NCBI GenBank assembly: GCA_018651085.1
Contig: JABIEQ010000014.1
Location: forward strand, 161,807-225,806
DNA length: 64,000 nt
Direction: 5' to 3'
Source: Candidatus Magasanikiibacteriota bacterium
Lineage (GTDB): Bacteria; Patescibacteriota; Patescibacteriia; Magasanikbacterales; UBA922
The translations under genes were made by a program, and so were the position numbers. The stretch's first letter is position 1, and each line of letters opens with the position of its first letter. Of this stretch, positions 11,534 through 62,388 are shown piece after piece. The notes below the pieces were generated by a model. The model was not told the DNA's origin, ran no database searches, and was given only the letters and a program-made list of their open reading frames with translations.

Positions 11534-14500
11534 TTACGCTTGTTCTCGACGTTTTCTTTTAAGAAAAAGCCCAACAAGAATACCGAGAAGAACAAGAATA
11601 CCAAGTCCTATCCAACCCCAAGGGGCTCCATCACTCACATCTCCAAAACCAAGAAGCTTTTGTTCTAAGTTAAATCGTTTACGGAGTAAATCTGTTTCAT
11701 CTTCATTAAGATCATCAATACGTTTTTGAATACTCTGTGCTTTGTCTTGTAATATTTTCGCCTGTTGTAAAAGATCTTCTCTTGGAATATCACTAATACC
11801 CTCTCCAGAATTAATAATATCTTCTAATTCTTCAAGGATTTGTCGTTGTTCATCTTCAAGATTCTCCCGTTCTTCTTCTAATTCTTCAAGTTCTTCTTCA
11901 ACATCATCAATATCATCTTGAAGTGGGTCATCTCTTTGCCCACCGCGACGAAAAGGATCCTCATTGTTATCATCTTCGTCAACATTATCCTGTCTATTTT
12001 GTTCATCACGCTCTTCTTGACTTATAATACGCACAAGAAGTCTTGTTTGTGTCACTTCGTCTCCTACTTTGGGATATCCACTTGCAATATACTGTGTTTC
12101 CCCTACTTCTTCAGGGACTCCAATAAGCACACCATTAATAGTATCAAAACTAAATCCAGGTAATAAATCTGGTGTAATACCATATTCAAAAATGCCTACA
12201 TTTCCACTTCCATCATTTATAATTTGATTTGGAGTAATCTGTTCTCCAACAACATACGTTACATCGTCACCAGTAGAAAATTTAATAAGCGGAAGCCCTC
12301 CACGATTATTTGGATCACGACCATCTTCACTCACAACCACACGAATAGACGCTTGTCCACGAGGATGATCATCATTCCAAGTTGCAAAAATTTCTGCAAC
12401 ACCTACAGCAAATCCTTTAATTAATCCAGCATCTACTTTAGCAACTTGAGGGGCATCACTCGTCCACACGTCACCAAATTCATTAATATTACCTAATTGG
12501 TCATTTTCAAAATGTAAAATACCTTGTACCTGACGTGTTTCTCCAGGTTGAAGAAATATAGTGTCAGGTGGTTCAATAGACACAAACTGAAATGGGTCAT
12601 TATTTTGGTTCTCAGATTGAAGAATAGTAATCTTCAATCGATACGTAAGCTCCACAAGAAGCCCAGAATCCTGCCGTACCAGCGTATAATACCGAGCAGG
12701 GGTAGCTACAGTAGGAATACCGGAAATTACTCCTGTATCAACATTAAGTGATAATCCAGAAGGTAATGCATCTTGATTAATATATCGGTAAAACGCTTGA
12801 GGGTTACCTACTGGTCTATTAGGAGTAATAGATTCACCAACCCTATACACCGATGGTTGAGTCGTATATACAAATGGAACAAATGCATCTTCATCACCTT
12901 CATCTTCTGAAGCAATAACAGTAATGCTAACGTCTGTCGACACTGTTTCATCTTCTGTTGATGCAAAAATAGCATGTACTTCAACTCCATCAGTTACAGC
13001 AGTTGGTGTACCAAAAATGGTACCAGTTTCTTCATCAAGATCAAGTCCGTCAGGAAGAGGGGCAAGTAGCAAGAAAAAATTATTAAATTCATCATCAGTT
13101 ACAATACGATTCAGTTCAATTTCTTCTCCAACAGTATATGTCACAAGAGGACGAGTATATGTAAAAGAAGGTCGATTGATATCGTTAGGATTAACAACTT
13201 CTACAGCAACAGAAACATGACCTTCTTGATAATATGCACGAATAATTGTTTCCCCAATGCCAATCCCTTCAACTAATCCAGGATCAAGAAAACTATTTAC
13301 ATCAGCAATATTACGATTATCTGAAACCCAGGTAACATCATTTGTAACATCAACAGCAACGTCTTCGTCAACGTAATGCGCCATAACTTGAAACTGCTGC
13401 AATCCACCAACAGCTAAGCGCCAAGGTCCAAGTGGTGTCATTTCTAAACGTTCAAGATCTCGTAATACAGGGCCGTCGTCAACCACTACAACACGGACAC
13501 TATCTTCTTGTTCAAAAAGTGATGCTTGAATCGATGTTTGACCCCGAAAACCAGCAAAGACACTTCCATTTTCGTCTACCTGAGCAATAAATGCATTACC
13601 ACTAGACCAAGTAACTTGATCAGTTACATCAACTAAACGATTCTCAGTTAAAGTTGCTAACACACGAAATTGTTGAGTATCTCCAGAAGAAATAACAACA
13701 GGATCAGGTTGATCAATCTCTATAGAAAGAAGTTCTTCAACAGCCACAACAAATGCCTGATCATCATCAATACCAAACACTTCGACAGGCACAAAAACTT
13801 GTGCACTTACGTGATCATCAACTTCTTCAGTGAAAATAACTTCAACAACAGTTTGTCCAACTCCAATCGTTTCGAGCATACCATCATTTGAGATACGAGC
13901 AATATCATTGTTTTGGGATACAAAAGACAATTCTTCTCGAACCTCTCGAACTTCTCCGTTTGTATAATGTACTGTCCCAAAAAAAGGAATACTATCTCCA
14001 ATAAGAGTACGCACCTGATCAGGATGGACATCAAGCCTATCAAACACTCGTACATCATTTCTAGGATTAAGTAATGGTCGTAATGGCACAAAATTTTCGT
14101 CAAGAACAATATTACGTTCAAGATCAAAAATAAAAATATTGTTTTGTTCATTTGATTCTAACGTAGCATCCTCATAATCGATAGGTATCTGTAAAAAAGC
14201 ATTTTCTTGATTTGCACGGATAGTTCTAAGAAGAAACCGAAAACCTTGCTGTTCCCCACCATTTAAATCAACCGTAGGAAAAATATTCCTCGCATTAAGA
14301 GGATTTCGATTACGATCAAGACGTTCAAATTTAGTTGTTATGTCAAACACCTCCACTTCACCATTGTTTTGTTTAATAACATGAAGCGAATCATCATTCT
14401 CATCGTACCGAATCTCTAACGTCAAATCAGGAAGAGGAATATCATATATTAAAACATTATTATCTTCATTTGTTTCCGAAAAATGATTTTCTGGATCGAT

Positions 14501-15937
14501 TTCTATTCGAGCAGTCGTAATTCGCCGATTTCTAAAAAAGGTTAAACCATATAACCGTGACCTTTCACTGTTTGCATCAATGTCCCCACGAGAGGTAAAC
14601 AACTCAGTTCTTACTAATTCTTGTTGATCATTATATAATTCAAGAGATACATCAGGATGACGAAATGGAAAGTCGGCATCATTATGCACAAAAAGACGAA
14701 GACCATCAGTGATATTAGGGTTATCGTCTGTATGTATATACGATACAGATGGCCAAAAATCTGGAAAAACCTCATCATCAACAAGATCGTCGTCATTAGG
14801 GTCATTAGGACCATCTTCAGCTATCACAACAACAGATGCTTCAGCCTCTCTCCAACCACTTGTATCTTGACCACGTACAGGATCTCCTACCCCATGGTTT
14901 TGGGCAACAATAGTAGCATTTCCAGGAGAAATAGCCCTAACAGTACCTTTCCCTCCAAAAAACAGAAATCTTGATCGATTTGATACCGTGGCTACATCAG
15001 GAGATCTTGAAAACCAAGTTAAATCTTGAGTCATTACTTCTCGTGTTCCATCAAGATAAATACCTGTTGCAAAAAAATCCACTGCTTCTCCGACAGACAG
15101 TTGAGACCTTTCCTGGTCAATAACAATACGATCTAAAATAGGTTCCACCCCAGGCAGAAAAACAATTTTAACATTATCATTTTCGTTTGATTCTCGTACA
15201 ATATTTGAAGAATCTATTGTCGCTTTTATAGCAACCGCATTTTCAGGAATACTATCAATAGAAAAACGTTTTTGGCTTGTTTCATTAGATCGAGATAAAT
15301 CCGCTTCCAATAGCAATTCTCGACGATTAGTCCCATCAATAACAGTTCCTCTTTCATCAATAAAAGCAATATCAACAAATACATCTCGCCTAGTTACCAT
15401 TCTAAAACCAGGTTCAGATGAATAAGTTGTACTTAACACAACATGTGTATTCTCTGCATTTCTATCCCCAGGAAAAGGGAATAAATTAATATCTACTGGA
15501 GTTATATTTACAAAAGAGAAAGTTTTTACATTATTTAACTCATTAGTTTCTTCAACTACGTTATTCGGATCAATAGTTACACCAACAACAGAAATCCCCT
15601 GGGGAACACTATATCCACGTGTCACCAAAGTATTCACGGGCACGTCAAAAATATATTGCTGTCTTCTATAAATATCAAAAGATTGTGCTGGATAGAAATG
15701 TAACTTCACAGTTACAAGATCATTGTAATGTAATCCATTATTTCTTACTAAAATATCAAAATTTCCAGTTCCCCCATTATAATCAAAAGATTCCAAAACC
15801 AAATCTACGGGTAAATCAATCTCTGGATTAAAAGGCCCATCTCCAAAAATAGCTCCTGTTATTGAAGGAATAAATAAAAAAACAAAGACGGCACAAAAAA
15901 ATACGACGAGTAAACGAGTAATTTTCATATATAACAT
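11534..15937 (-). CDS. Giant cell-surface protein (1467 aa) with CARDB-like, Big_2-like and putative Ig (He_PIG-like) domains, an acidic coiled-coil segment and a C-terminal TM anchor.
   Basis: Signal peptide MKITRLLVVFFCAVFVFLFIPSITGA. Repeated Big_2-like segments (VTWSSGNAFIAQVDENG...). Motifs such as LPSGLSLNVDTGVISGIPT. C-terminal GWIGLGILVLLGILVGLFLKRKRR. Confidence 0.75.
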   Translation of the reverse strand: MLYMKITRLLVVFFCAVFVFLFIPSITGAIFGDGPFNPEIDLPVDLVLESFDYNGGTGNFDILVRNNGLHYNDLVTVKLHFYPAQSFDIYRRQQYIFDVPVNTLVTRGYSVPQGISVVGVTIDPNNVVEETNELNNVKTFSFVNITPVDINLFPFPGDRNAENTHVVLSTTYSSEPGFRMVTRRDVFVDIAFIDERGTVIDGTNRRELLLEADLSRSNETSQKRFSIDSIPENAVAIKATIDSSNIVRESNENDNVKIVFLPGVEPILDRIVIDQERSQLSVGEAVDFFATGIYLDGTREVMTQDLTWFSRSPDVATVSNRSRFLFFGGKGTVRAISPGNATIVAQNHGVGDPVRGQDTSGWREAEASVVVIAEDGPNDPNDDDLVDDEVFPDFWPSVSYIHTDDNPNITDGLRLFVHNDADFPFRHPDVSLELYNDQQELVRTELFTSRGDIDANSERSRLYGLTFFRNRRITTARIEIDPENHFSETNEDNNVLIYDIPLPDLTLEIRYDENDDSLHVIKQNNGEVEVFDITTKFERLDRNRNPLNARNIFPTVDLNGGEQQGFRFLLRTIRANQENAFLQIPIDYEDATLESNEQNNIFIFDLERNIVLDENFVPLRPLLNPRNDVRVFDRLDVHPDQVRTLIGDSIPFFGTVHYTNGEVREVREELSFVSQNNDIARISNDGMLETIGVGQTVVEVIFTEEVDDHVSAQVFVPVEVFGIDDDQAFVVAVEELLSIEIDQPDPVVISSGDTQQFRVLATLTENRLVDVTDQVTWSSGNAFIAQVDENGSVFAGFRGQTSIQASLFEQEDSVRVVVVDDGPVLRDLERLEMTPLGPWRLAVGGLQQFQVMAHYVDEDVAVDVTNDVTWVSDNRNIADVNSFLDPGLVEGIGIGETIIRAYYQEGHVSVAVEVVNPNDINRPSFTYTRPLVTYTVGEEIELNRIVTDDEFNNFFLLLAPLPDGLDLDEETGTIFGTPTAVTDGVEVHAIFASTEDETVSTDVSITVIASEDEGDEDAFVPFVYTTQPSVYRVGESITPNRPVGNPQAFYRYINQDALPSGLSLNVDTGVISGIPTVATPARYYTLVRQDSGLLVELTYRLKITILQSENQNNDPFQFVSIEPPDTIFLQPGETRQVQGILHFENDQLGNINEFGDVWTSDAPQVAKVDAGLIKGFAVGVAEIFATWNDDHPRGQASIRVVVSEDGRDPNNRGGLPLIKFSTGDDVTYVVGEQITPNQIINDGSGNVGIFEYGITPDLLPGFSFDTINGVLIGVPEEVGETQYIASGYPKVGDEVTQTRLLVRIISQEERDEQNRQDNVDEDDNNEDPFRRGGQRDDPLQDDIDDVEEELEELEEERENLEDEQRQILEELEDIINSGEGISDIPREDLLQQAKILQDKAQSIQKRIDDLNEDETDLLRKRFNLEQKLLGFGDVSDGAPWGWIGLGILVLLGILVGLFLKRKRREQA

Positions 15938-17193: not shown

Positions 17194-17223
17194 AAACCCT
17201 ATTGAAAATATAGGGTTTTTTTG
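17194..17223 (+). terminator. Rho-independent terminator after the SOD gene.
   Basis: aaccctat-tgaaaa-tatagggtt followed by a T-run. Confidence 0.6.
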
Positions 17224-17239
17224 TTACGATAGCCATATT

Positions 17240-18370
17240 ATGACTACATTAATCTCTGTTGATTCTCTAGAGACCATTGTTGCCTTTAGCCTCATTTCTT
17301 GTGTGGCTGCTTTTTTATGGGCACCAGCACTCATCAAATTCCTCTACAAATACAACATTACAAGAAGAAATCCCCATGATGTCACCCTCACCATGGAATG
17401 TAGAAAACATAAGAAAGGAGTCCCTATTATGGGCGGGCTTCTTATTATCGTAACCGTAGCAGTCATTACTCTTCTATTTAACTGGGAAAGACGATTTACC
17501 TGGGTTCCTATTGGCGTCATGCTTATTGCCGCAACCCTTGGAGGCGTAGATGATCTTCTAAATATCTTTAACGAAAAAAAACGGCGAAACAGAAAACTTA
17601 AACATCTTCTTCGCTTAATCCGCGTTCATAAATCAATAAAACATCGTTTGTGGTTAATTATGACCTTCCCGTGGGCAGTGTTTAAAAGAACATCTCTTTG
17701 GCTTGGATCTCATCCAGGAAAAGGCCTTCATGTTCATGAAAGACTTATATTACAATTCATCGCAGGCGCACTCGCTGCCTGGTGGATCTATTTTAAACTT
17801 GGAGACTACTGGCACAATATTTATATTCCCTTTGATGGATTTATAGATATTGGCTGGCTTATCATCCCTCTTATTATTCTTTTTGTGATGGGAACAGCAA
17901 ACGCCGTAAACTTTTCTGATGGCATGGATGGGCTTGCTGGAGGATCTCTTGCTATTACTTTTTGTGCACTTGCTTTTTTAAGTTGGATTGAAGGATTTCA
18001 AGAACTTGCCATACTAAATAGTACTGTTGTTGGGGCTCTTATTACCTATACCTACTTTAATATTAAACCAGCCCGTTTCCAGATGGGAGACATTGGCTCC
18101 CTTGGATTAGGGGCACTTCTGGCTATTAATGCCATTGCCATAAACAGAATGCTACTCCTTCCTTTTCTTGGATTTATTTTCTATGTAGAAATAGCAAGTG
18201 TTATTATTCAAATTCTTGGTCGCTATACATTAGGCCGTCGCATATTTAAAATGGCACCAGCCCATCATCATTTTGAACTTCGAGGATGGAGTGAAGAAAA
18301 AACAGTAATGCGTTTTTGGGTTATCCATGCCGCGGTTGTTATTCTTGGCGTATGGATTGGATTAGCATAA
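17240..18370 (+). CDS. mraY: Phospho-N-acetylmuramoyl-pentapeptide transferase MraY (GT4 family).
   Basis: NAVNFSDGMDGLAGG and MGDIGSLGLGALLAI motifs in a polytopic membrane protein. Confidence 0.8.
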   Translation: MTTLISVDSLETIVAFSLISCVAAFLWAPALIKFLYKYNITRRNPHDVTLTMECRKHKKGVPIMGGLLIIVTVAVITLLFNWERRFTWVPIGVMLIAATLGGVDDLLNIFNEKKRRNRKLKHLLRLIRVHKSIKHRLWLIMTFPWAVFKRTSLWLGSHPGKGLHVHERLILQFIAGALAAWWIYFKLGDYWHNIYIPFDGFIDIGWLIIPLIILFVMGTANAVNFSDGMDGLAGGSLAITFCALAFLSWIEGFQELAILNSTVVGALITYTYFNIKPARFQMGDIGSLGLGALLAINAIAINRMLLLPFLGFIFYVEIASVIIQILGRYTLGRRIFKMAPAHHHFELRGWSEEKTVMRFWVIHAAVVILGVWIGLA

Positions 18371-18374
18371 ACAA

Positions 18375-19028
18375 ATGAGTTATTTGCGTTTTGACAATAA
18401 AATAGTGACTGATCTAACAGACACATCTATTACATCCTTGTACAATCAAGGATATGTTTTTATACGAACAACAAAAGGCGCAATGGATCAAACAAGAAGT
18501 GTGCGTATTGATCTTTCCGTATTTGAACCCTCAAGTGAAAACCGTCGTATCATACGAAAAATGACAGAACAACACATTACTCTTCAAGAAATCCCACTCC
18601 CTTACGTTGCATATCATTGGGAAATTGGAAAAATGGGAAAAACCTTTTATGACGAAAAATTTGGTCCAAAAACCTTTAGCGCCAATAAAATAAAAGAAGT
18701 CTTAACTAATAAAGCAAAAAGTAATTTCACAACACTGTTTGTCTACAAACAACATGATATTCCTGTTGGATATTGTATTGTGTATCAAAATGAAGACATG
18801 ATCCACTATTCATACCCTTTTTATAATGAAGAGATACAAAATCTTGGCATAGGTATGATGGGATTAGCAATTGCAAAAGCAAAAGAAGAACAAAAAAAAC
18901 ACATCTACCTCGGATCAGCACAGCGCCCAAAAGACATATATAAACTTCAGTTTAAAGGACTAGAATGGTTTGATGAAAAAAAATGGGATAACGATTTAGA
19001 GACACTTAAACATACTCTGCAAATATAA
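18375..19028 (+). CDS. Short Ate1/Bpt-family (aminoacyl-tRNA--protein transferase-like, GNAT/Fem fold) protein.
   Basis: N-terminal region GYVFIRTT...RSVRIDLSVFEPSSENRRIIRK resembles the Bpt/ATE_N consensus but lacks the Cys residues. C-terminal HIYLGSAQRPKDIYKLQFKGLEWF resembles ATE_C (YLG...KxxYKxxF). Confidence 0.4.
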   Translation: MSYLRFDNKIVTDLTDTSITSLYNQGYVFIRTTKGAMDQTRSVRIDLSVFEPSSENRRIIRKMTEQHITLQEIPLPYVAYHWEIGKMGKTFYDEKFGPKTFSANKIKEVLTNKAKSNFTTLFVYKQHDIPVGYCIVYQNEDMIHYSYPFYNEEIQNLGIGMMGLAIAKAKEEQKKHIYLGSAQRPKDIYKLQFKGLEWFDEKKWDNDLETLKHTLQI

Positions 19029-19029
19029 T

Positions 19030-19722
19030 ATGGCACAAACAGCAGTATGGGAAAAAGAGTATAACGATAAAAAACTTCTTGCGTTTCATCATGAACCACA
19101 AAAAGACACATTACGATTTATAAAATACCTTAAAAAAACACACAAGGTGCAGCTTGATGGAAAAACCATACTTGATCTTGGTTCAGGGACAGGGAGAAAT
19201 GGAAACTACATGGCAAAAAAAGGAGGCACCGTACATGGGATTGAAATATCACAAACAGCAATAAAAATAGCGAATGAACAAGCACATAAATTATGTGTAG
19301 AAAAACAAGCGTCCTACTACTTTCGTAGTTTCGGAGAACCATTGTCTTTTGAAGATAATACTTTTGATATAGTGATTGACGTTACATCATCAAATTCTCT
19401 AAATGAAAAAGAAAGAGAAACCTATATAAAAGAAGTGCAAAGAGTACTTAAGCCTCAAGGGTTTTTCTTCTTAAAAACACTGTGTAAAGACGGGGATAAA
19501 AATGCAAAAAACCTTCTTAAAATGCATCCAGGAAAAGAAGTCAATACCTATATCATGCCTGACATAAATTTAGTAGAACGAGTATTTTCTGAATCAGACA
19601 TTATATCTCTGTATGGAAATCATTTTGAAATATTAAAAAAAGAAAAGAAAACCACTTACTCAAAAATAAACAACCAACCATACAAAAGAAATTTTTGGAT
19701 TGTATACATGCAAAAGAGCTAA
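19030..19722 (+). CDS. Class I SAM-dependent methyltransferase.
   Basis: Motif I ILDLGSGTGRNGNYMAKKG. Confidence 0.6.
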   Translation: MAQTAVWEKEYNDKKLLAFHHEPQKDTLRFIKYLKKTHKVQLDGKTILDLGSGTGRNGNYMAKKGGTVHGIEISQTAIKIANEQAHKLCVEKQASYYFRSFGEPLSFEDNTFDIVIDVTSSNSLNEKERETYIKEVQRVLKPQGFFFLKTLCKDGDKNAKNLLKMHPGKEVNTYIMPDINLVERVFSESDIISLYGNHFEILKKEKKTTYSKINNQPYKRNFWIVYMQKS

Positions 19723-19726
19723 TCTT

Positions 19727-21127
19727 ATGAAAAACAAACATATACATTTTATCGGTATTTGTGGTGTCGCAATGAGCGCTATCGCTATTGCATTTCAAAA
19801 AAAAGGATGGACCGTTACAGGGTCAGATAAAGGATTCTATCCACCGGTATCAACACATCTTAAAAAAACAGACATCACTTTTTACCCAGGATGGCACGTA
19901 GAAAAAATGACCAAACATGGTGATCCTGATATTGTAATTGTTGGGAATGTTGCAAGTTCAAAAAACGAAGAATGGTTGTATGTGCAAGAAAAAAATATTC
20001 CATATAAATCATACCCAGAAATAATCGCATCACATTTCATACAATCAACATCTATTGTCTGTGCTGGAACCTATGGTAAAACAACAAGTTCAGCATTACT
20101 TGCTTGGATATTTGAACAACACGGTAAACAGCCAAGCTATATGTTTGGTGGGCTTACACAAAATGATTTTCCTGCAGCACAAATTGGAGAAGGAAACATA
20201 AGTATTCTCGAAGGAGACGAATATAAAACAGCTCGATGGGATAATAGACCTAAATTTAAATCATACTCCCCTACCCATCTCATGTTAACCGCAGTGTCTT
20301 GGGATCATGCGGATATATACCCTACCGAAGCATCTTACATGAAAGAATTTGAAGATCTCATAGAGATGATTCCAAAAGAAGGAAACATTACCGTGTGTAT
20401 TGATCATAAAAAAGCTCTTGCGTTAGCAAAAAACACAAAAAGTACTGTTACAACATATGGAAAAGATCAAACCGCAGCATATCGATATAGCAATTTAAAT
20501 GAATCTCAGATAGGGATGGATTTTACTATTACACATAAAGACGAAACACATACAATAGAATCCCCCATGATTGGATCATACATTGCAGAAAACATGACGG
20601 GAGTATTTGCTATGGCACATCAATTAGGCATTCCTACAAATGATATCATTACACATATAAAAACATTTCATGGAATGAAACGCCGATTAGAAAAACGCTA
20701 TGAAAAAGATGTTATCGTATTTGATGATATTGCTCATTCGCCAGAAAAAGCAAAAGCAACATTACAGACAATACGGAAAGTATATAATGGAAATATTATC
20801 GCCGTGTTTGAACCAAACACAGGAAACAGAAAAAAAGAATCATTTCCACAATACAAAAATGCATTTACAGATGCAAACGAAGTAATCATTGGAAGACTCA
20901 CAAAAGTAAAAAAAGAAAACAACCCCGAACATCAAGAAGCATGCAACGAACATGGACTAGCCGACATTATTAAAAAAAGCCACACACAAGTCACTGTTAT
21001 TGATGACGATGCAATGCTTGTAGAGCACATCATTAAACAAACAAAGAAAGACGATGTTATCGTCTTTCTTGGAAGCCACGGATTTAGAGGAATGATTGAA
21101 GAAACAATAAAAAAACTAGAACACTAA
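19727..21127 (+). CDS. Mur ligase family protein (Mpl/MurC-like; UDP-N-acetylmuramate ligase family).
   Basis: N-terminal HIHFIGICGVAMSAIAIAF...GSDKGFYPPVS resembles Mpl/MurC. Central GTYGKTTSSALLA P-loop. The start is set at MKNKHIHF. Confidence 0.7.
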   Translation: MKNKHIHFIGICGVAMSAIAIAFQKKGWTVTGSDKGFYPPVSTHLKKTDITFYPGWHVEKMTKHGDPDIVIVGNVASSKNEEWLYVQEKNIPYKSYPEIIASHFIQSTSIVCAGTYGKTTSSALLAWIFEQHGKQPSYMFGGLTQNDFPAAQIGEGNISILEGDEYKTARWDNRPKFKSYSPTHLMLTAVSWDHADIYPTEASYMKEFEDLIEMIPKEGNITVCIDHKKALALAKNTKSTVTTYGKDQTAAYRYSNLNESQIGMDFTITHKDETHTIESPMIGSYIAENMTGVFAMAHQLGIPTNDIITHIKTFHGMKRRLEKRYEKDVIVFDDIAHSPEKAKATLQTIRKVYNGNIIAVFEPNTGNRKKESFPQYKNAFTDANEVIIGRLTKVKKENNPEHQEACNEHGLADIIKKSHTQVTVIDDDAMLVEHIIKQTKKDDVIVFLGSHGFRGMIEETIKKLEH

Positions 21128-21128
21128 T

Positions 21129-21296
21129 TTATTTTCCTTCTTCAACAATTTCAACAACAATTGAACCATCATCTTTCTTCTCCATAACCATAAGAGTGAT
21201 ACCACAAGTCTGACATTCAATAACTTGCTCTTTTGCAAGATCTCCATAGATAGAAAGATCCACTTCATTTTTACATTCTGGACAAACCAACTGCAT
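21129..21296 (-). CDS. 55-aa LysW-like zinc-ribbon protein, absent from the ORF track because it is under 60 aa.
   Basis: My own translation of the minus strand gives MQLVCPECKNEVDLSIYGDLAKEQVIECQTCGITLMVMEKKDDGSIVVEIVEEGK. It has two CxxC pairs and the CxxCGxxL(E/M)V pattern seen in LysW-type carrier proteins. It lacks the C-terminal EDWGE. Confidence 0.4.
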   Translation of the reverse strand: MQLVCPECKNEVDLSIYGDLAKEQVIECQTCGITLMVMEKKDDGSIVVEIVEEGK

Positions 21297-21368: not shown

Positions 21369-22253
21369 ATGAAAACACCTCAACAAACATACAATACACT
21401 CAATAAAGCAATCGGTATAAAGGACATATACCTTAAAAGAGAAGATCTTCATAAATATGGATCCCATAAAGGGCGATCCATTCCTATGATGATTAAATGG
21501 TATGTGAAAAAAGAAAACAAGAGACACTTCGTTATCTCTTCTTCAGGCAACGCTGCCCTTGCAGCAATTCATGCTGTAGAACAACACAATAAAAACAACC
21601 CTGAAAAACAAATCAATCTTCACATCTATATCGGCCAAAAAATTAATGACAAGAAAAAAAGAAAACTTGAAAAAGCCATTACACAATCAACGACCACACT
21701 TGAACAAGTTGAGCGTCCCAAACAAATGGCTTTTCAAAAAGAAAAAGAAGGTGAAGCAATATACCTAAGACAATCGACAGATGATCTTGCTCTTGAAGGA
21801 TATATGGAGCTAGCCCGTGAATTAAAAAAAATACCCAACCTCCAAGCAGTATTTGTAGCCACTTCATCAGGGACAACAGCTCAAGCACTTGGAGATATCT
21901 ACAAAGAAGACAAGCATCCTATTCAAATTCACATAATACAAACAACAAGTTGCCATCCAATAGCAAGCCTATTTGACACAGAGATTGAATCAAAAGACAC
22001 ATCAACAGCTGGAGCTATTGTCGATCACATTGCTCATAGAAAAGAACATGTAGTAGCTGCCATAAAAAATACCCATGGATTTGGATGGGTTGTAACAAAT
22101 GAAGACATTAAAAATGCTAGAAACATTGTACGCGAACATACAAAAATAGATTTTTCTTCTAATGGGGTACTTAGTATCGCAGGATTACAAAAAGCTATAA
22201 AAAAGGGTTGGTCATGGAAAGGCCCAGTTGCATGCATTATTAGTGGAGAATAA
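21369..22253 (+). CDS. PLP-dependent enzyme, fold type II (threonine synthase/cysteine synthase-like).
   Basis: LKREDLHKYGSHKGRS is analogous to the xSFKDRG lysine motif. A Gly-rich loop SSGTTAQALG is also present. Confidence 0.55.
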   Translation: MKTPQQTYNTLNKAIGIKDIYLKREDLHKYGSHKGRSIPMMIKWYVKKENKRHFVISSSGNAALAAIHAVEQHNKNNPEKQINLHIYIGQKINDKKKRKLEKAITQSTTTLEQVERPKQMAFQKEKEGEAIYLRQSTDDLALEGYMELARELKKIPNLQAVFVATSSGTTAQALGDIYKEDKHPIQIHIIQTTSCHPIASLFDTEIESKDTSTAGAIVDHIAHRKEHVVAAIKNTHGFGWVVTNEDIKNARNIVREHTKIDFSSNGVLSIAGLQKAIKKGWSWKGPVACIISGE

Positions 22254-22425: not shown

Positions 22426-23151
22426 TCATTTTTTCCAAATACTAATAATATTTTCACCAGTATCGATCTCTACTCTTTTCCCTTTTTTTGCATAATATTG
22501 ATCTTCAACAATAAAGCCAACAGATGAAGCAAGATCATTCAACTCTTCAAGACTATAGCCATAATAGTATCGTTTCGCTAAAATTTCCCCTGGTCCATTT
22601 CGCCAAGGCACAATAAAATTTTTCTGATCTTCTGTTGTATACTTCCCCTTTGTCACTTTATCCTGCACCCATCCATTAAATGCATTCCAGTTCGTCATAA
22701 TAAAACATCCCCCCGGACGAAGGACACGAAACATCTCTTTAATAACTTGTTTTTGTAATTGTGGCGGAATATGACAAATAACGGCCACAGCATACAACGC
22801 ATCAAAAGAATTATCTAAAAAGGAAAGTGTACAAATATCTTCTACAACAAATGTCTTATCCTCATATCTAGAACGAGCAAGAGTAATGAGATTTTCACTT
22901 TGGTCCACTCCTGTATACGAAATATCTTTATCGGAAAAAAGCATAGACAATCGTCCATTCCCACATCCTACGTCTAAAATAGTATCTCCATTTTTAATAA
23001 AACGACCCAATTTTTTCAAATCATCCCACAAATAGTCTCGTGTACTTGAAAAAAGATGAGATACAGCATCATAAGCCTCTTTATTTTGCAGAACATAGCG
23101 ATAATCTTGATTTTTTTTCATATATATGCAATACTTATGTCCGTCTGTCAT
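22426..23151 (-). CDS. Class I SAM-dependent methyltransferase (type 11-like). Start alternatives are 23151 (MTDGHK) and 23121 (MKKNQ).
   Basis: ILDVGCGNGRLSMLF motif I. Flanked on both sides by related inverted-repeat elements. Confidence 0.65.
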   Translation of the reverse strand: MTDGHKYCIYMKKNQDYRYVLQNKEAYDAVSHLFSSTRDYLWDDLKKLGRFIKNGDTILDVGCGNGRLSMLFSDKDISYTGVDQSENLITLARSRYEDKTFVVEDICTLSFLDNSFDALYAVAVICHIPPQLQKQVIKEMFRVLRPGGCFIMTNWNAFNGWVQDKVTKGKYTTEDQKNFIVPWRNGPGEILAKRYYYGYSLEELNDLASSVGFIVEDQYYAKKGKRVEIDTGENIISIWKK

Positions 23152-23237
23152 TGCGACACCCTAAACAAGGCTCTTTCGGTTTTGGGTGATATGAGGTGCT
23201 TTACAACTACTCATTTTCCTAGGGTGTCGCAATGACA
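23146..23237. repeat. Element B: a 92-nt unit closed by a perfect 18-bp terminal inverted repeat (TGTCATTGCGACACCCTA ... TAGGGTGTCGCAATGACA). Its outer ends share GTCATnGCGA with element A.
   Basis: Read directly. The arms overlap the annotated ATGs of both divergent genes. There is an inner hairpin atgag...ctcat. Confidence 0.5.
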
Positions 23238-24953
23238 ACACAGATTCTTATGACTGAAGAAATATTAGAACAAATCATGGCATTTATTGTTGAGAAGCAA
23301 CCTGAAAGTAAGGTTGCTTTTGATGATTTACGAAGAAAAAAATGTAGCGCACTCAAAATATCTCAACCAGCCAACAGAAAATTACTCAAAGCCTATCATA
23401 GACTCATCAAAAAAGGAAGTATCACAGCAGACACACAAATAGAACATTTCCTTAGAAAAGCCAATATTAGAAGCATGTCTGGTATTGCAGTAGTAACTTC
23501 CCTTACAAAACCGTACATGTGCCCAGGAAAATGCGTCTATTGCCCAACAGAGGTACGTATGCCAAAAAGTTACCTTGCATCAGAACCAGCAGCCGCTCGT
23601 TCTATGCGTCTTGATTTTGACCCATATGAACTCATGCAAAAACGTATTGAGATGATGGAAGATAATGGGCATCCTTGTGACAAAATAGAATATATTGTAA
23701 AAGGAGGCACATGGAATGCATACCCTTTAAAATATCAATACTGGTACATCCTTGAATCATTCAGAGCATGTAACAATTTAAAAAGTGACACCCCCTCAAA
23801 AAGAACATGTGAAGACGATTGGAAAGAAAAGACAGTAAAGGATCTTCAAAAAGAAATGCTTATTGAACAAGAAAAAAATGAATCTACAAAATATAGAATT
23901 ATTGGTCTTACTTTAGAAACACGTCCTGATGCCATTTCCCCAAAAACCATTTGGCACATGAGAAATATGGGATGTACTCGAATAGAACTTGGTCTTCAAG
24001 CACCCGACGATAAGATCCTTGACCTTATTCAAAGAGGACATAGTGTCGATCAATTTAGACGAGCAATGCACCTTCTAAGAAAAGCCGGATTTAAAGTAGA
24101 CCTTCATTTCATGCCAGATCTTCCAGGGTCAACACCCGATCACGATGTCGAGATGTATAAAAGTCTTTTTACTGATGAATCACTTAAACCAGACATGGTG
24201 AAAATTTATCCGAATACGGTAATCCCTTCAGCTGAGCTATACGAATGGTATAAAGATGGTAGATACACTCCATATAAAGAAGAAGAACTATTTGAAGCAC
24301 TTCTTCAAATGAAAGAAGTGACTCCTCGATACTGCCGAATATCTCGACTTATTAGGGATATTCCAGAAAATGAAATCATGGCCGGAAATAGAATTACAAA
24401 CCTCAGACAACATCTTGAAACTATTCTTCATAAACGTGGAAAAATATGCCAATGTCTTCGATGCCGAGAAATAGGCAGACAAATGAAACATGTTCCAAAA
24501 GATACCACACCAATACTATTTATTGATGAATATCAAACTGTTGGAGGAAAAGAATTTTTTATTACGTTTGAAGACCCTAAAAGAATTGCCGTATTTGGAT
24601 TTTTACGACTACGTCTTCCTGAAGAAGTACATAAGGACATCAATTGGATATCACAAAAAGAAGATACAAATAATGGAAAAGAACTCTTTTCACTTCTTCC
24701 AGAAATAAAAGATTGTGCCTTCATAAGAGAACTCCATACCTACGGCCAGCTTATTGGTATTGGACAAAAAGGAAACAGCGATGCTTCTCAACACAAAGGC
24801 CTCGGGAAAAGACTTATCAAAGCAGCTGAAGATATTGTACAAAAACATGGGTACACAAAATGTGCAGTCATTTCAGGTGTGGGTGTAAAAGGTTATTACG
24901 AAAAGTTAGACTATAAAAAAGAAGGTACCTACGTTGTAAAACATTTCAATTAA
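23232..24953 (+). CDS. Elp3-family radical SAM / GNAT acetyltransferase (tRNA wobble-uridine modification enzyme homolog).
   Basis: Radical-SAM cluster motif MCPGKCVYCP. The C-terminal GNAT region FIRELHTYGQLIGIG...GLGKRLI matches Elp3 architecture. Length 573 aa. Confidence 0.8.
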   Translation: MTTQILMTEEILEQIMAFIVEKQPESKVAFDDLRRKKCSALKISQPANRKLLKAYHRLIKKGSITADTQIEHFLRKANIRSMSGIAVVTSLTKPYMCPGKCVYCPTEVRMPKSYLASEPAAARSMRLDFDPYELMQKRIEMMEDNGHPCDKIEYIVKGGTWNAYPLKYQYWYILESFRACNNLKSDTPSKRTCEDDWKEKTVKDLQKEMLIEQEKNESTKYRIIGLTLETRPDAISPKTIWHMRNMGCTRIELGLQAPDDKILDLIQRGHSVDQFRRAMHLLRKAGFKVDLHFMPDLPGSTPDHDVEMYKSLFTDESLKPDMVKIYPNTVIPSAELYEWYKDGRYTPYKEEELFEALLQMKEVTPRYCRISRLIRDIPENEIMAGNRITNLRQHLETILHKRGKICQCLRCREIGRQMKHVPKDTTPILFIDEYQTVGGKEFFITFEDPKRIAVFGFLRLRLPEEVHKDINWISQKEDTNNGKELFSLLPEIKDCAFIRELHTYGQLIGIGQKGNSDASQHKGLGKRLIKAAEDIVQKHGYTKCAVISGVGVKGYYEKLDYKKEGTYVVKHFN

Positions 24954-32042: not shown

Positions 32043-32215
32043 ACGCGCCCATTGTAACATACCTCATAAAAAAACAAAATCCCTAGCATATTACTAGAGA
32101 TGTTTGTCATCGATCACTACCTTCTTACTATAAAAAAGTACTGATCGATGAGCTCCACGGGGGTATTGCTCAATCGACCGCGCGTTTGCGCAGCTCGAGA
32201 GCACCTCCCGGGGAG

Positions 32216-32968
32216 CTAATTCCCCTTTGTTTTGTTCACCAAGAATTCCTTCTTCGAGACCCTGGCCAAGAGGGTCCAACGGTTTCCGCCCTCTTTCCCC
32301 CAAGAGAACTTTCGGTCCCAGAGAGAAAGGTCACCATAAGCGTCTTGCCTCACCTGAAAGTAACGGTAATATCCGCTACCCAACGGAACCAACGCCCCTT
32401 GGCTCGAGAAGATGGCCTTGCTAAGACCATCGCAGACACTCCCCGTTGCACCTTCATAGCGCAACATAGTTGGCGTCTCCATAATCCATGCGTAGCAGCT
32501 CCGAGTGTCAAACACCCAGACCGACTTGTCGCAAGAGTCGTCGAGACCGTCCTTATCGAGGTCCTGATTAAGATTCCTCTCCATAGGGCAGCTGTCTCGG
32601 TTGTTGGCAAGGCCATCACCGTCGATGTCGTCGTCGCAGGCATCTCCAAGACCATCCACGTCGAGATCTTCTTGATCGGGGTTGGCCACCTTGCGGCAGT
32701 TGTCCCAATCATCGGAGATACCGTCCTCGTCGAGGTCCTCGCAGACGTCTCCCAAAGGGAGCCCCCCGGAGTCACGTTGCATCTGATTGCGGATGTTGGG
32801 ACAGTTATCCCACTTGTCAGGGATGGTGTCGCCGTCGGTGTCCTTCTCCACTTGGACAATGAGGCTCTTCGATGCCGACGGCAGGGTCAAAGTGGCCGGC
32901 GTCGTCGGGAGAGTGCACCCGGACAAGACGATAGCACACGAAAAGATCAGAACAGTTGCGGTACGCAT
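32216..32968 (-). CDS. GC-rich lipoprotein with thrombospondin type 3 (Ca-binding) repeats.
   Basis: Lipobox LSGC. DTDGDTIPDKWDNCP and DEDGISDDWDNC repeats. A GGAGG RBS lies 8 nt upstream of the ATG. GC content is far above the surrounding sequence. Confidence 0.6.
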   Translation of the reverse strand: MRTATVLIFSCAIVLSGCTLPTTPATLTLPSASKSLIVQVEKDTDGDTIPDKWDNCPNIRNQMQRDSGGLPLGDVCEDLDEDGISDDWDNCRKVANPDQEDLDVDGLGDACDDDIDGDGLANNRDSCPMERNLNQDLDKDGLDDSCDKSVWVFDTRSCYAWIMETPTMLRYEGATGSVCDGLSKAIFSSQGALVPLGSGYYRYFQVRQDAYGDLSLWDRKFSWGKEGGNRWTLLARVSKKEFLVNKTKGN

Positions 32969-33330
32969 GGCATAAACCTCCAAGGCTTGCCGGTGTGTGA
33001 ACAAATAAGGGCTAATTACTACACAAAGAAAAAATATGTACTATTTATTCTGTACGTAGTAACCAACTGATAGAATGAACATTTCTCACTATCCCCTTTT
33101 ATAAAAAAGAAATACTGGGCAATGGGGCTGCACACATAAAGCGCGCAGCCCAGTTTCCATAAATACGACATGTATCTGGAACCCCTACTAGGCAAGCCGT
33201 TCGGGGTATTTGTTTTTCTGTCATCTCGCTTTTGCGAGGCATCTTCTTTTTATCGCTAGAATTCCGAGGAAGAAGGTCTCCTCATATAGAAATCACTCTC
33301 ACGGACTATCCGCGAGAACATATCGTAAGC

Positions 33331-34374
33331 TCAATGCTTCGCGATACTCGCCTCCCTGTCGGGGAAGTCGTTCGTCACGCCGAGACCGGTTTCGAGAACA
33401 CTCTGACCATCGAGGGCCAAAACATCCTCACCGTTCTCTTGAAGTTCACCACCAGTGCGGTGAACGGCGTAACGATTCTCGTCGGAGACATCAGAATCAT
33501 TACCGAACTTCACCAAGGATACCATCATGGCCTTCTTACCACCCGTAGACACGTTCCACGTGCCAACGGGACGGTTGTCCTGGCAGCGGCCAGAGACAGC
33601 GAATTCGGCATCGAGGTAGCGGACCACCTCGAGAACCTGGCCATTGGCCTGGGCCTTGTCGCACGACACCATGTCCACGACTCGACGCTCAACACTCAAA
33701 GGAAGCTTGGGCGTCGGGAGACTCGCGAGGAGCTCCGCGTCACCCTCTTCCTCGAAGACGTTGAGGTCGTTGAAGTTGAAGGTTTTCTCCGAAGCCTTCT
33801 TGGCCACAGGAGCAACACCTCGAGTGGACGCGTATGCCTGTGCTTCACGCTCGGCATGAACCTCGGCTTTAGCGCTCACACTCGTAAGGGAAGTGATCGG
33901 CGCCTCGATAACCCGCTTACGCTGCTCGCGCTTCGGGGTATTCTTGACGCTAACTTTCCACCAGTTCGTGACGAGCCGATTTTTCTTATCGGTCGTCATC
34001 TGAGCCGGCCGACCTCGACCACGCTGCGTCTTCTTGACAGCAGCAGGACGAGGATCCGAATCGAAAGTATCTCGATGCCCAAGGGCTTCTGCCAAGAACG
34101 TCTCGATTTCTTCAGCAGAGGGCTCTTGGTTAAGCGCCTCATACACATCGAACTTTTTCGCGGCGGGCGGATCAGCGGCCCGGCGGGCACGCTCACGGCG
34201 GAGTCGCGACTCTTCGAGCCACGCCCCCTCGTTGCGCTTCACGCTTCCACCCTGACTGATCAGATCTCCATCGGTCACACTGAAGGAAGGTCCTCCAGCG
34301 ATCGCTGACGAGATAAAGCTCAGGTTCAGGGCGATGACGATGGCCACGAGGAGAGCGATGTTCGGCTTGTTCAT
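33331..34374 (-). CDS. GC-rich secreted hypothetical protein (347 aa) with a signal peptide.
   Basis: Signal peptide MNKPNIALLVAIVIALNLSFISSAIA. Strong RBS AAGGAGGAATTACC immediately upstream of the ATG. No recognisable domain. Confidence 0.55.
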   Translation of the reverse strand: MNKPNIALLVAIVIALNLSFISSAIAGGPSFSVTDGDLISQGGSVKRNEGAWLEESRLRRERARRAADPPAAKKFDVYEALNQEPSAEEIETFLAEALGHRDTFDSDPRPAAVKKTQRGRGRPAQMTTDKKNRLVTNWWKVSVKNTPKREQRKRVIEAPITSLTSVSAKAEVHAEREAQAYASTRGVAPVAKKASEKTFNFNDLNVFEEEGDAELLASLPTPKLPLSVERRVVDMVSCDKAQANGQVLEVVRYLDAEFAVSGRCQDNRPVGTWNVSTGGKKAMMVSLVKFGNDSDVSDENRYAVHRTGGELQENGEDVLALDGQSVLETGLGVTNDFPDREASIAKH

Positions 34375-34454
34375 GGTAATTCCTCCTTAAGGAATCTGTA
34401 GTAGGATGCGCAGCTCAAATGGCGCTACCCTACAAAGGTTTGTTACTCTCACAA

Positions 34455-35639: not shown

Positions 35640-37050
35640 CTACGCTGTTTCTCGTTTATAATAATACACACTATAAAACAACACAAATAAGACAAACGAG
35701 CCAATCGCCCCAAACTGCACAATCCGCTTTAGCATGTTTGAATCAGCCTGAAGTGGATTTTCATCTTCACCATCAATTCGCCCATCGTCGTCAGTGTCAG
35801 CTCTATTAGGATCAGTACCGCTATCCACTTCTTCCTTATCATTTAATCCATCAGCGTCAGTATCAGCCAATAATGGATCAGTACCAATTTCTTCTTCTTC
35901 AATGTCACTTAGTCCATCTCCATCGTCATCAGTGTCAACATTATTTCCTTCCCCATCTAAATCAAAATCAGCAGATTCCGTTGCATCCATTGGAAATAAA
36001 TCAAGTAAATCGTTTACTCCATCACCATCAGTATCTACTAACAAAGGATCAGTACCCTTATCCTTTTCTTCTTTATCACTCAATCCATCTTCATCTGTAT
36101 CAGCTTTCTTAGGATCCGTCCCATCTTTAATTTCAACATTATCGTCAAGTCCATCGCCATCAGTGTCAGACGTCGTAGGATCTAACCCTTGATCAAACTC
36201 ATCTTTATCAGAAATACCATCACCATCAGAGTCAACTTTTGTTGGATCAGTTCCCCTATCACGCTCTTTTCCGTCAGTAATGCCATCCCCATCTGTATCA
36301 CTGTTTAATGGATCACTCCCAAGACCTTTTTCATCAATATCACTAAGCCCATCGTTATCGTCATCAGGATCAGCATTATCACCAATGTCGTCTCCATCAG
36401 CATCTGCCCACTCTCCTCCATTTGTTGGAAATACATCAACATTGTCTTTATACCCATCTCCATCCGTATCTTCTTTTACGGGGTCCGTTCCACGATCTAC
36501 TTCTTCTTTATCACTAAGTCCATCACCATCTGTATCAGACACTAATGAATTTGTCCCTAAATCTTTTTCTCTTGAATCTAAAAGTCCATCATTATCGTCA
36601 TCAGGATCATGTATATCTCCAACGTCATCTCCATCAGTATCTAGATCAATAGTATATGTCCTTTCAGATTCAAATCCAGCAACTTCTTCACTAGAAATAG
36701 ACACAACACTTCCATCCCCATTTTTTGCAATAAAATTTGTAAGCCGTGCAGTAAAAGATCCTTCGCCAGAAGGTAATGTATATTCTATCCAAACTTGCTT
36801 TGCTCCTTCTAAAGGAAGATCAACAACACGAGTAGTCCCAATTAAAGATCCATTATTTAAAAATTCAACATCAGCAGAAAAAAAAGCAAAGTCATTATTT
36901 ACAACGACTGTATAAATTTTCACTATGTCTCCAGCAAAGGCATCATTATCAGAAAACCATACGCCTTGACTTACAAAACTAAACGTTGCAAATACTGGAG
37001 TAACAAGAAAAAAAAGAAAAAAACAAGAAACAAGGAAAGAAATCTTTTTC
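35640..37050 (-). CDS. Surface protein with about 14 thrombospondin type 3 repeats, a signal peptide and a C-terminal TM anchor.
   Basis: MKKISFLVSCFFLFFLVTPVFA. Iterated D(T/S)DGDG(L/I)SD...GTDP units. C-terminal FGAIGSFVLFVLFYSVYYY. Confidence 0.7.
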
Positions 37051-37171
37051 ATAATATAAAAAACTACACCTATAGTGTAGCAAATTGGCGTAAAAAAGAA
37101 AACAATGTGGTAATCCAAGTCGTCGGGGTGCACAAAGGCACCCTGACGATAATGGAAGTGAACACCCTCGC

Positions 37172-37465
37172 CTACTTCCCCACACAAGCGAGGGATCGGC
37201 CCTTACGCTCCAGAGTGTCGGGGCATTCAGTCTTACCGCCATCCTGATAAAAGAAACTTTCGTATCCTTTCACCGAGATGCCTTCAGCACAGTGGTACCA
37301 CCGGGTGGTATCATTTTTGTTCATCGTCACTTGCGGATAACTGTCATCCGCACACCTGACAACGATGTGCCCTTGAACAAATCCCATGAAGACTTGCGCC
37401 CCAATGAATAGCGCAAATGCCCCGAGAAAAAAAGCCGTTACCCTCTGAAATAGTGTCACTTCCAA
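37172..37465 (-). CDS. Small GC-rich secreted/membrane-anchored Cys-containing hypothetical protein. Possible TTG start.
   Basis: 97-aa ORF in a roughly 50% GC patch. Hydrophobic N-terminus and five Cys. An AAGGGGG RBS-like sequence lies upstream. Confidence 0.3.
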   Translation of the reverse strand: MEVTLFQRVTAFFLGAFALFIGAQVFMGFVQGHIVVRCADDSYPQVTMNKNDTTRWYHCAEGISVKGYESFFYQDGGKTECPDTLERKGRSLACVGK

Positions 37466-62330: not shown

Positions 62331-62388
62331 AATTATGCTATAAATAGAGCAATTACAGTATATCAAATAATACGCACAAAGGACAATT

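Follow-up and report, generated by a model that had tools for sequence, protein, structure and literature searches.

The 64,000-nt stretch of a Candidatus Magasanikiibacteriota genome analysed here (contig JABIEQ010000014.1; hereafter the window, from whose first letter all coordinates are counted) encodes a 217-aa protein, read from positions 18375 to 19028 (+), between the gene for MraY and the gene for a MurC-like Mur ligase. By sequence comparison this protein is a real but distant homologue of the arginyl- and leucyl-tRNA–protein transferases ATE1 and Bpt. It is the complete form of a distinct, hitherto uncharacterised subfamily in the ATE/Bpt branch, and its gene occupies a fixed place among peptidoglycan-precursor genes in two deep lineages of Patescibacteria. 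Its homology and gene context suggest that it may be a transferase of Bpt descent that uses aminoacyl-tRNA to modify a peptidoglycan precursor, in a role like that of FemX or MurM, a reading that we favour tentatively. A first-pass annotation made from the letters of the window had proposed a similar function for a 217-aa product lying between mraY and a MurC- or Mpl-like ligase. When the open reading frames (ORFs) were read again from the sequence, all four genes of the locus were recovered at the same positions, and profile matches identified each partner.

The homology to Bpt was detected with profile methods. Seven NCBIfam arginyltransferase (Bpt) equivalog models match the 217-aa protein with E-values from 1.9e-9 to 5e-3 over model positions ~37-241, and the best of them, NF002344 (E=1.9e-9), pairs query residues 20-195 with model positions 37-220. 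The scores of 16.6-37.6 bits are far under the equivalog cut-offs of 170-358. Pfam ATE_C gives 21 bits for the window protein, under its gathering score of 25, but matches 37 of the 38 family members examined, with a best E-value of 3.8e-7. ATE_N, FemAB, and Leu_Phe_trans, the other Pfam models proposed for comparison, gave no match to the window protein at E<=1. We also aligned the family by hhalign with seven genuine Bpt proteins, whose genes were found in PLSDB megaplasmid and chromid records with a Bpt-like bait and of which only real matches were used. The window family aligned with them over 181 columns with 97.6% probability (E=4.6e-12), and a sister clade aligned with 99.3% probability (E=1.8e-20). 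In hhalign and in a joint alignment of all clades with Bpt (18 sequences), the segment RSVRIDLSVFEPSSENRRIIRK of the 217-aa protein pairs with Bpt QSLRIHSERFTPSRGQKRIRQL, and HIYLGSAQRPKDIYKLQFKGLEWF pairs with Bpt WLYLGYLVEECRKMNYKRQYLPHELL, so that the two segments in which a resemblance to ATE/Bpt had been noticed, one N-terminal and one C-terminal, both align. The similarity to Bpt spans ~185 aligned columns and includes the N-terminal part of the protein, which is not GNAT. Because neither the window protein nor its family profile retrieved ATE1 in searches of PDB sequences, the case for Bpt homology rests on the NCBIfam matches and on the hhalign comparison with genuine Bpt proteins; the more diverse sister-clade profile reaches ATE1 in the PDB marginally (E about 1).

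The predicted structure points in the same direction. An AlphaFold2 model of the 217-aa protein, calculated with 38 homologues, has a pLDDT of 95.5 and a pTM of 0.91 and contains one GNAT core. The best Foldseek match in the PDB is human ATE1 (8tzv_A, E=2e-9, TMq 0.75), with yeast ATE1s alongside, followed by the aminoacyl-phosphatidylglycerol synthases (MprF; 4v35, E=2.8e-7, TMq about 0.48) and then by Weissella FemX (1xe4 and 4ii9, E about 5e-7, TMq about 0.5). All matches from rank 1 to rank 47 are aminoacyl-tRNA transferases (ATE1, A-PGS/L-PGS/MprF, and FemX), with the first acetyl-CoA GNAT at rank 48. As modelled, therefore, the protein has an ATE1-type fold, and FemX is a structural neighbour only. 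The description of the protein as truncated did not survive: a confident fold is predicted for a full-length form that is shared by a conserved family of >1000 proteins, and relative to Bpt the family carries an internal deletion of five residues.

The place of the aminoacyl-phosphatidylglycerol synthases in this ranking raises another explanation, in which the 217-aa protein would be a tRNA-dependent transferase that, like MprF, acts on the hydroxyl of a lipid or glycopolymer (phosphatidylglycerol, the undecaprenyl carrier, or a teichoic-acid-like polymer). A-PGS, L-PGS, and MprF rank high among the fold matches (E about 3e-7), the MprF synthase domain (DUF2156) uses an aminoacyl-tRNA donor and has the catalytic lysine and basic helix described below (PMC9351520), and the window gene is translationally coupled to the gene for MraY, a membrane enzyme. 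However, the TMq to these synthases is lower than that to ATE1. MprF has a tandem GNAT pair, a fused membrane flippase domain, and a lipid-hydroxyl acceptor, whereas the 217-aa protein consists of a single GNAT domain with no membrane domain, and in Microgenomates its gene lies between those for the soluble enzymes MurE and MurC and not beside mraY. We therefore consider a lipid or glycopolymer acceptor improbable.

To locate the residues that are kept or lost, we combined the hhalign map, the joint alignment, and conservation counts over the 38 members. Bpt and all three ATE-like clades have twelve invariant positions in common: Y3, G26, R44, F50, F149, G158, L179, G180, Y189, K190, E197, and W204. 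The Tyr-Lys pair at codons 189-190 (18939 to 18944, +), which is aligned to Bpt by hhalign and to the ATE1 segment KMKYKGQY by HMMER, is the counterpart of Y303-K304 in klAte1, F304-K305 in FemX, and Y215-K216 in Bpt. It does not vary among the 38 members or among the 18 jointly aligned sequences. In klAte1 the lysine stabilises the tetrahedral intermediate and a K304A mutant is inactive, and the same catalytic lysine is found in FemX (K305) and the aminoacyl-phosphatidylglycerol synthases (PMC9351520). A basic helix is also kept at codons 54-65 (SENRRIIRKMTE; 18534 to 18569, +), where the AlphaFold2 model has a helix over the same residues. Its conserved positions are R57 (Arg in 31 members and Lys in 7), R58 (38/38), K/R61 (37/38), and K62 (38/38), and it aligns with SRGQKRIRQL of Bpt and SKSHKKVLKKM of human ATE1. 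Aminoacyl-tRNA transferases are reported to have in common such a helix, which binds the tRNA acceptor stem and is missing from other GNATs (PMC9351520, PMC10115844). Apart from these two elements, 39 more positions are invariant in the 38 members, which are diverse, at 55-60% identity. Such a pattern is typical of an active enzyme and makes it very improbable that the protein has kept only the fold and serves the Mur/MraY machinery as a scaffold or regulator without catalytic activity, an idea for which the loss of the zinc finger, the GFRRS block, and a conserved histidine would speak.

Those losses fall largely on the side of the protein that in Bpt and ATE1 senses the acceptor. The 217-aa protein begins at the Tyr-Leu of the Bpt C-x-Y-L motif, with the ~16 preceding residues absent, and Y3 aligns with the tyrosine of that motif in the joint alignment. 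From its place in the C-x-Y-C motif, Y3 would correspond to klAte1 Y25, for which a Y25F substitution nearly abolishes activity. Within the Bpt motif G-F/W-R-R-S-G, G26 and Y/F27 are kept and are followed by a five-residue gap, RRSGx, in all three ATE-like clades. Arginine 80 of klAte1 reads the acidic N-terminal residue of the substrate, and an R80E mutant is inactive (PMC9351520); judging by spacing, its equivalent probably falls within the deleted GFRRS block. Bpt residues C61, C64, and C67 are replaced by K34, M37, and T40, and Bpt C17 has no aligned residue at the point where the 217-aa protein starts. Neither the metal-binding CxxC...CC pattern of ATE1 nor the C...CxxCxxC pattern of Bpt is present. 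The absence of the N-terminal cysteines, remarked on in the first-pass annotation, was thus borne out: the only cysteine of the window protein is C134, at an unrelated position, and members of the family carry 0-4 cysteines, none of them conserved. Donor recognition is common across the superfamily and the acceptor-sensing parts diverge (PMC10115844), a published view with which the motif pattern of the 217-aa protein fits.

On the donor side, the side-chain pocket formed in klAte1 by S255, S273, E277, and Y289, and in Bpt by A168, A185, Q189, and L201, maps here to Y145/S146, M161, A165, and I177. The mapped pocket contains no acidic residue, and arginine is therefore an unlikely donor; the pocket argues for a small or hydrophobic amino acid.

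The second line of evidence is gene order. In the clade that includes the window, a tblastn survey of 84 loci from species-level genomes found mraY on the same strand, upstream of the ATE-like gene, in 82 loci and a Mur ligase gene downstream in 78; wherever one of them is missing, the contig breaks off within 2 kb. By ORF clustering, mraY directly precedes the ATE-like gene in 60 of 72 loci, typically with a gap of 1-16 nt and sometimes with an overlap, and is separated from it by one small gene in 10 more. The ligase gene is directly adjacent to the ATE-like gene in 35 of 67 loci, separated from it by one gene in 25, by two in six, and by three in one. These intervening genes are heterogeneous, with no family in more than six loci. 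In Microgenomates the ATE-like gene sits in a complete division and cell-wall (dcw) cluster with the order mraZ-rsmH-ftsL-PBP-murE-[ATE-like]-murC-like-murB-murA-ddl-murF-mraY. This order, found in about 23 loci, was named by NCBIfam for locus L095 and confirmed by the assembly gene calls for locus L173, in which the ATE-like gene overlaps murE by 4 nt. The pairing of the ATE-like and MurC-like genes therefore outlasts rearrangement of the cluster between two deep lineages. The ATE/Bpt profile matches and the conserved adjacency, the two findings on which the earlier proposal was to stand or fall, are therefore both in place.

Gene order also bears on the explanation that the protein is a patescibacterial Bpt of the N-degron pathway whose mraY and murC neighbours reflect operon hitch-hiking. 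The protein is a Bpt homologue with an intact catalytic core, JGI pipelines label its relatives arginyl-tRNA--protein arginylyltransferase, and its context in Verrucomicrobiae is not related to the cell wall. Against this, it reaches 37 bits where the equivalog cut-offs are 170-358, all three ATE-like clades have a deletion in place of the GFRRS block and the cysteine cluster is gone, and the adjacency to mur genes holds across two classes of Patescibacteria despite the rearrangement of the cluster. Furthermore, no homologue of aat, clpS, or clpA was found in the gene families that are conserved around the ATE-like gene. In contrast, a canonical bpt, annotated 'arginyltransferase', lies directly downstream of aat in Acinetobacter baumannii (L166). 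We consider a role in the N-degron pathway improbable, and both the motif losses (PMC9351520) and the location of canonical bpt support the suggestion that the protein is no N-end-rule enzyme. Because of the lost GFRRS block and cysteines, and because the partner genes are mraY, murE, and murC and not aat, the predicted acceptor is not an acidic protein N terminus. Bpt/ATE1 (Pfam ATE_N and ATE_C; NCBIfam PRK01305 models) remains the closest family by profile and by fold, with a single GNAT core, an N-terminal β-subdomain, the catalytic Tyr-Lys pair, and the basic tRNA helix in common. However, the scores far below threshold, the missing ATE_N match, the missing cysteine cluster and GFRRS block, a His-to-Phe replacement, and the lack of an N-degron context mean that the protein should not be filed as Bpt.

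Several observations weigh against tRNA-dependent modification of a wall precursor. The histidine that contacts the phosphates of tRNA C75/A76 in klAte1 (H178) and FemX (H206) corresponds to Bpt H117 and is replaced by an invariant phenylalanine, F96, although the preceding basic residue is kept (K95). The zinc finger of ATE1, absent here, also contributes to tRNA binding (PMC10115844). With both the CCA-binding histidine and the zinc finger gone, tRNA binding could be weakened or lost. The loop Q155-N-L-G158-I-G160, with conserved G158 and G160, would fit an acyl-CoA pyrophosphate loop too, and for the sister-clade profile the PDB match to an ordinary GNAT, 3d8p (E=1.5e-5), is stronger than that to ATE1. 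The gene neighbourhood in Verrucomicrobiae is variable and mostly not related to the cell wall. Alanine racemase, encoded immediately upstream in 6 of 14 long loci there, would speak for a wall function, but this link was given little weight because it is confined to a sub-lineage and the remaining loci have unrelated neighbours. Finally, the adjacent MurE of Microgenomates looks to be of the diaminopimelic acid (DAP) type, with NF001126 above its cut-off and EDPR at the DNPR position in 20 of 22 loci. Branches added by tRNA-dependent enzymes are typical of Lys-type walls, though LL-DAP-Gly walls exist. In addition, femX is annotated in some Patescibacteria metagenome-assembled genomes (MAGs; PMC12992704), so a canonical Fem enzyme may already exist in part of the phylum.

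Some of these points would be expected if the protein were instead an acyl-CoA-dependent GNAT N-acyltransferase that acts on a cell-wall precursor or another envelope amine and uses no tRNA. The glycines of the Q155-G160 loop, of a kind that is also found in tRNA-dependent relatives, are conserved, the CCA-binding histidine and zinc finger are lost, the NCBI entry is labelled 'GNAT family N-acetyltransferase', and profiles match ordinary GNATs in the PDB (8osp, E=0.0027, in addition to 3d8p). There are also weak Pfam matches to Acetyltransf_6, Acetyltransf_10, and Acetyltransf_1; for the window protein, Acetyltransf_6, Acetyltransf_10, and Acetyltransf_8 score 12-18 bits, all under their cut-offs. 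Nevertheless, Bpt/ATE1 is the nearest family by every sensitive method, over a length that takes in the non-GNAT N-terminal part, and all of the top 47 fold matches use tRNA. Both the Tyr-Lys pair, invariant in this family, and the basic helix mark the tRNA-dependent group (PMC9351520, PMC10115844). An acyl-CoA donor is thus unlikely, if less so than the other alternatives considered here.

If the 217-aa protein is a tRNA-dependent transferase for a wall precursor, its GNAT core would bind the acceptor stem and CCA end of a charged tRNA through the basic helix at residues 54-65 and an aromatic patch. A free amine of the precursor, or less likely a hydroxyl, would attack the aminoacyl ester, and Tyr189-Lys190 would stabilise the resulting tetrahedral intermediate. 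In the likeliest case the acceptor would be the amine on the side chain of the position-3 diamino acid in UDP-MurNAc-pentapeptide, lipid I, or lipid II, and the product would be a branched or modified stem peptide. The computational evidence supports the cell-wall function suggested by the first-pass annotation to this extent, by way of homology and gene context. Two other roles in precursor synthesis were considered. Replacement of the Mur ligases MurC or MurD by the ATE-like enzyme was rejected on chemical grounds, because the reaction needs an amine or hydroxyl acceptor, and carboxylates are all that UDP-MurNAc and UDP-MurNAc-L-Ala have to offer; moreover, the sister-clade cluster contains murE, murC, and murF. 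An Mpl-type salvage reaction, with L-Ala added to γ-D-Glu-DAP and the peptide attached by the neighbouring ligase, is unsupported because the motif that recognises an acidic residue is deleted and murE is adjacent.

The role proposed is that of FemX and the other FemABX/MurM enzymes (Pfam FemAB), which also belong to the GNAT superfamily and have an equivalent catalytic lysine. However, the 217-aa protein gives no FemAB profile match, and it has one GNAT domain where the Fem enzymes, at about 330-420 aa, have two. Since it is of Bpt/ATE and not Fem descent, the same role would mean independent recruitment. It is possible, though we hold this more loosely than the proposed function itself, that a second aminoacyl-tRNA transferase lineage, independent of the Fem enzymes, performs a core step of peptidoglycan-precursor synthesis in Patescibacteria. 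Aat (Leu_Phe_trans) resembles the 217-aa protein as a small (about 230 aa), single-GNAT aminoacyl-tRNA transferase, but it gives no profile match, is not among the 50 Foldseek matches listed, and differs in its catalytic residues and N-degron context.

The ATE-like family is compact and falls into three recognisable clades. A word-indexed search returned 1028 relatives, nearly all of 210-240 aa, the best 120 being 54-61% identical to the window protein save for two near-identical entries. A scan of one genome per species found the family in >544 species, and an exhaustive HMMER search over 1.84 billion cluster representatives gave 575 matches at E<=1e-3 and 90 at E<=1e-30. The first clade, that of the window, comprises Magasanikbacteria, Paceibacteria, and Parcubacteria. 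The second, in Microgenomates such as Shapirobacteria, is ~33% identical to the first and has a 12-residue N-terminal extension and a C-terminal tail, and the third comes from MAGs of soil Verrucomicrobiae. Literature searches found no paper describing the family, and its public labels are 'hypothetical protein', 'GNAT family N-acetyltransferase', which is the label of an identical NCBI protein from a Candidatus Magasanikbacteria MAG, and the pipeline-assigned (JGI) 'arginyl-tRNA--protein arginylyltransferase'. Hundreds of entries labelled 'arginyltransferase' or 'GNAT N-acetyltransferase' are probably mis-annotated. Many TPA_asm MAG records (L005-L084) titled 'uncultured Gammaproteobacteria bacterium' or 'Candidatus Saccharibacteria' carry the gene and its synteny at 50-58% identity, and their organism names look like placeholders or mislabels. 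Two relatives have additional regions. One of 343 aa (P0100) has a C-terminal extension with a DGLHR motif, which gives no clue to function. In the other, of 809 aa (P0251), an ATE-like domain (residues 30-218) is fused to PPDK_N ATP-binding and PEP-utilizers swivel domains; as a single sequence that may be a real fusion or an assembly artefact, it was not used as evidence.

In the window, the transcription unit begins with mraY (17240 to 18370, +), which encodes a 376-aa phospho-MurNAc-pentapeptide transferase that matches TIGR00445 with E=1e-56 and 192.7 bits (cut-off 192.05) and Pfam Glycos_transf_4 with E=6.5e-27. This MraY matches the mraY model in two stretches separated by an apparent basic insertion of ~60 residues (around residues 100-160), and the long form is common to related loci, where tblastn alignments extend over ~370 aa. 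The ATE-like gene starts 4 nt after the mraY stop and is followed by a gene for a 230-aa class I S-adenosylmethionine (SAM)-dependent methyltransferase (19030 to 19722, +; Methyltransf_25, E=5e-18). The methyltransferase gene is present within the cluster as had been described, but it is a variable insert: ORF clustering finds its family at this position in 4 of 67 loci, the window included, and tblastn places it between the ATE-like and ligase genes in L024, L058, L068, L074, and the window. We therefore rejected it as a conserved partner and regard it as rare, incidental cargo. The MurC-like ligase (19727 to 21127, +) has Mur_ligase, Mur_ligase_M, and Mur_ligase_C domains and scores 265.5 bits with the murC model (cut-off 335.1) and 245.2 bits with the mpl model (cut-off 388.7), slightly nearer murC by bit score and below both curated thresholds. 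Its ORF opens at a TTG at 19700; an ATG at 19727, 4 nt past the methyltransferase stop, fits the start of the murC model and is the likely start codon. With this start, the gaps between the four genes are 4, 1, and 4 nt, a spacing from which the genes are very probably co-transcribed.

Upstream of mraY, directly 3' of the sod stop, the sequence reads as a hairpin and T-run, AAACCCTAT-N7-ATAGGGTTT followed by TTTT (17194 to 17222, +), that probably ends the upstream prx-sod unit, so that mraY would open a new transcription unit. A promoter-like TTGAAA-17-TACGAT with TG, a consensus match only, overlaps the hairpin at 17202-17230.

Beyond the ligase gene lie two possible accessory members of the cluster. 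The first encodes a 55-aa LysW-type zinc-ribbon protein with a CPEC...CQTC motif (21129 to 21296, −; Zn_ribbon_LysW PF21344, E=7.8e-7, 29.1 bits, cut-off 27). The second encodes a divergent, threonine-synthase-like enzyme of the pyridoxal phosphate (PLP)-dependent β-family (21369 to 22253, +; Pfam PALP, E=5.7e-31). The PALP family is found 3' of the ligase gene in 65 of 85 window-clade loci and also in the dcw clusters of the Microgenomates sister clade, where the orthologue in L095 looks threonine-synthase-like but reaches none of the threonine synthase cut-offs and matches the SbnA family weakly. The LysW-like gene recurs beside the Mur ligase/PALP pair in both Patescibacteria clades. A gene for a 52-55-aa protein of this type adjoins the ligase or PALP gene in L001 (11734-11898, −) and L003 (10091-10255, −), and the Microgenomates locus L173 has one (17414-17572, −) that is divergent from the PALP gene, as in the window, with an ATP-grasp gene after the PALP gene. 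The two genes may form a small pathway that makes an unusual wall amino acid, and if the ATE-like protein represents a second transferase lineage of wall synthesis, the co-clustered LysW-like carrier and PLP enzyme might supply the amino acid.

The peptidoglycan cluster of this genome is small, consisting of mraY, the ATE-like gene, the ligase gene, and possibly the LysW-like and PALP genes. The genes on either side of it have no relation to the cluster: upstream lie glycosyltransferases, mnmA, a 1467-aa surface protein, prx, and sod, and downstream an Elp3-like gene, NUDIX, and serine hydroxymethyltransferase (SHMT). The Elp3-like gene (23232-24953, +) encodes a 573-aa radical-SAM and GNAT protein of a type uncommon in bacteria. 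It is divergent from a second SAM methyltransferase gene (22426-23151, −), and the pair is found again 3' of the PALP gene in ~15 related loci. The 1467-aa protein (11534-15937, −) is predicted to be a repeat surface protein with a C-terminal membrane anchor. Large predicted surface proteins with bacterial TSP3 repeats are also encoded at 35640-37187 (−) and 60816-62366 (−), the latter near a subtilase with FG-GAP repeats (58844-60811), and together these look like typical cell-surface machinery of the candidate phyla radiation. A 2.2-kb GC-rich island at ~32200-34400 (48-61% GC, compared with ~36% for the genome) has long overlapping ORFs on both strands; these had no Pfam match, Rfam gave one chance miRNA match, and blastn against phages gave none.

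Patescibacteria make up a large share of bacterial diversity, are mostly uncultured, and have envelopes that are essentially uncharacterised biochemically. With 55-60% identity among its members and a fixed place in the mraY/mur operon of two deep classes, the ATE-like family is therefore a concrete candidate for a lineage-specific step in wall synthesis, and its gene can be cloned. Were the proposed function correct, the Bpt/ATE1 family would no longer be confined to the modification of protein N termini, and it would have been recruited to wall synthesis convergently with the Fem enzymes. Should it indeed be a second transferase lineage at the core of precursor synthesis, most Paceibacteria/Magasanikbacteria and Microgenomates would build a non-canonical stem peptide modified in a tRNA-dependent manner. 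The proposed transfer to a precursor would also predict an unusual muropeptide, which could be a chemical marker or a determinant of host interaction in these epibiotic bacteria.

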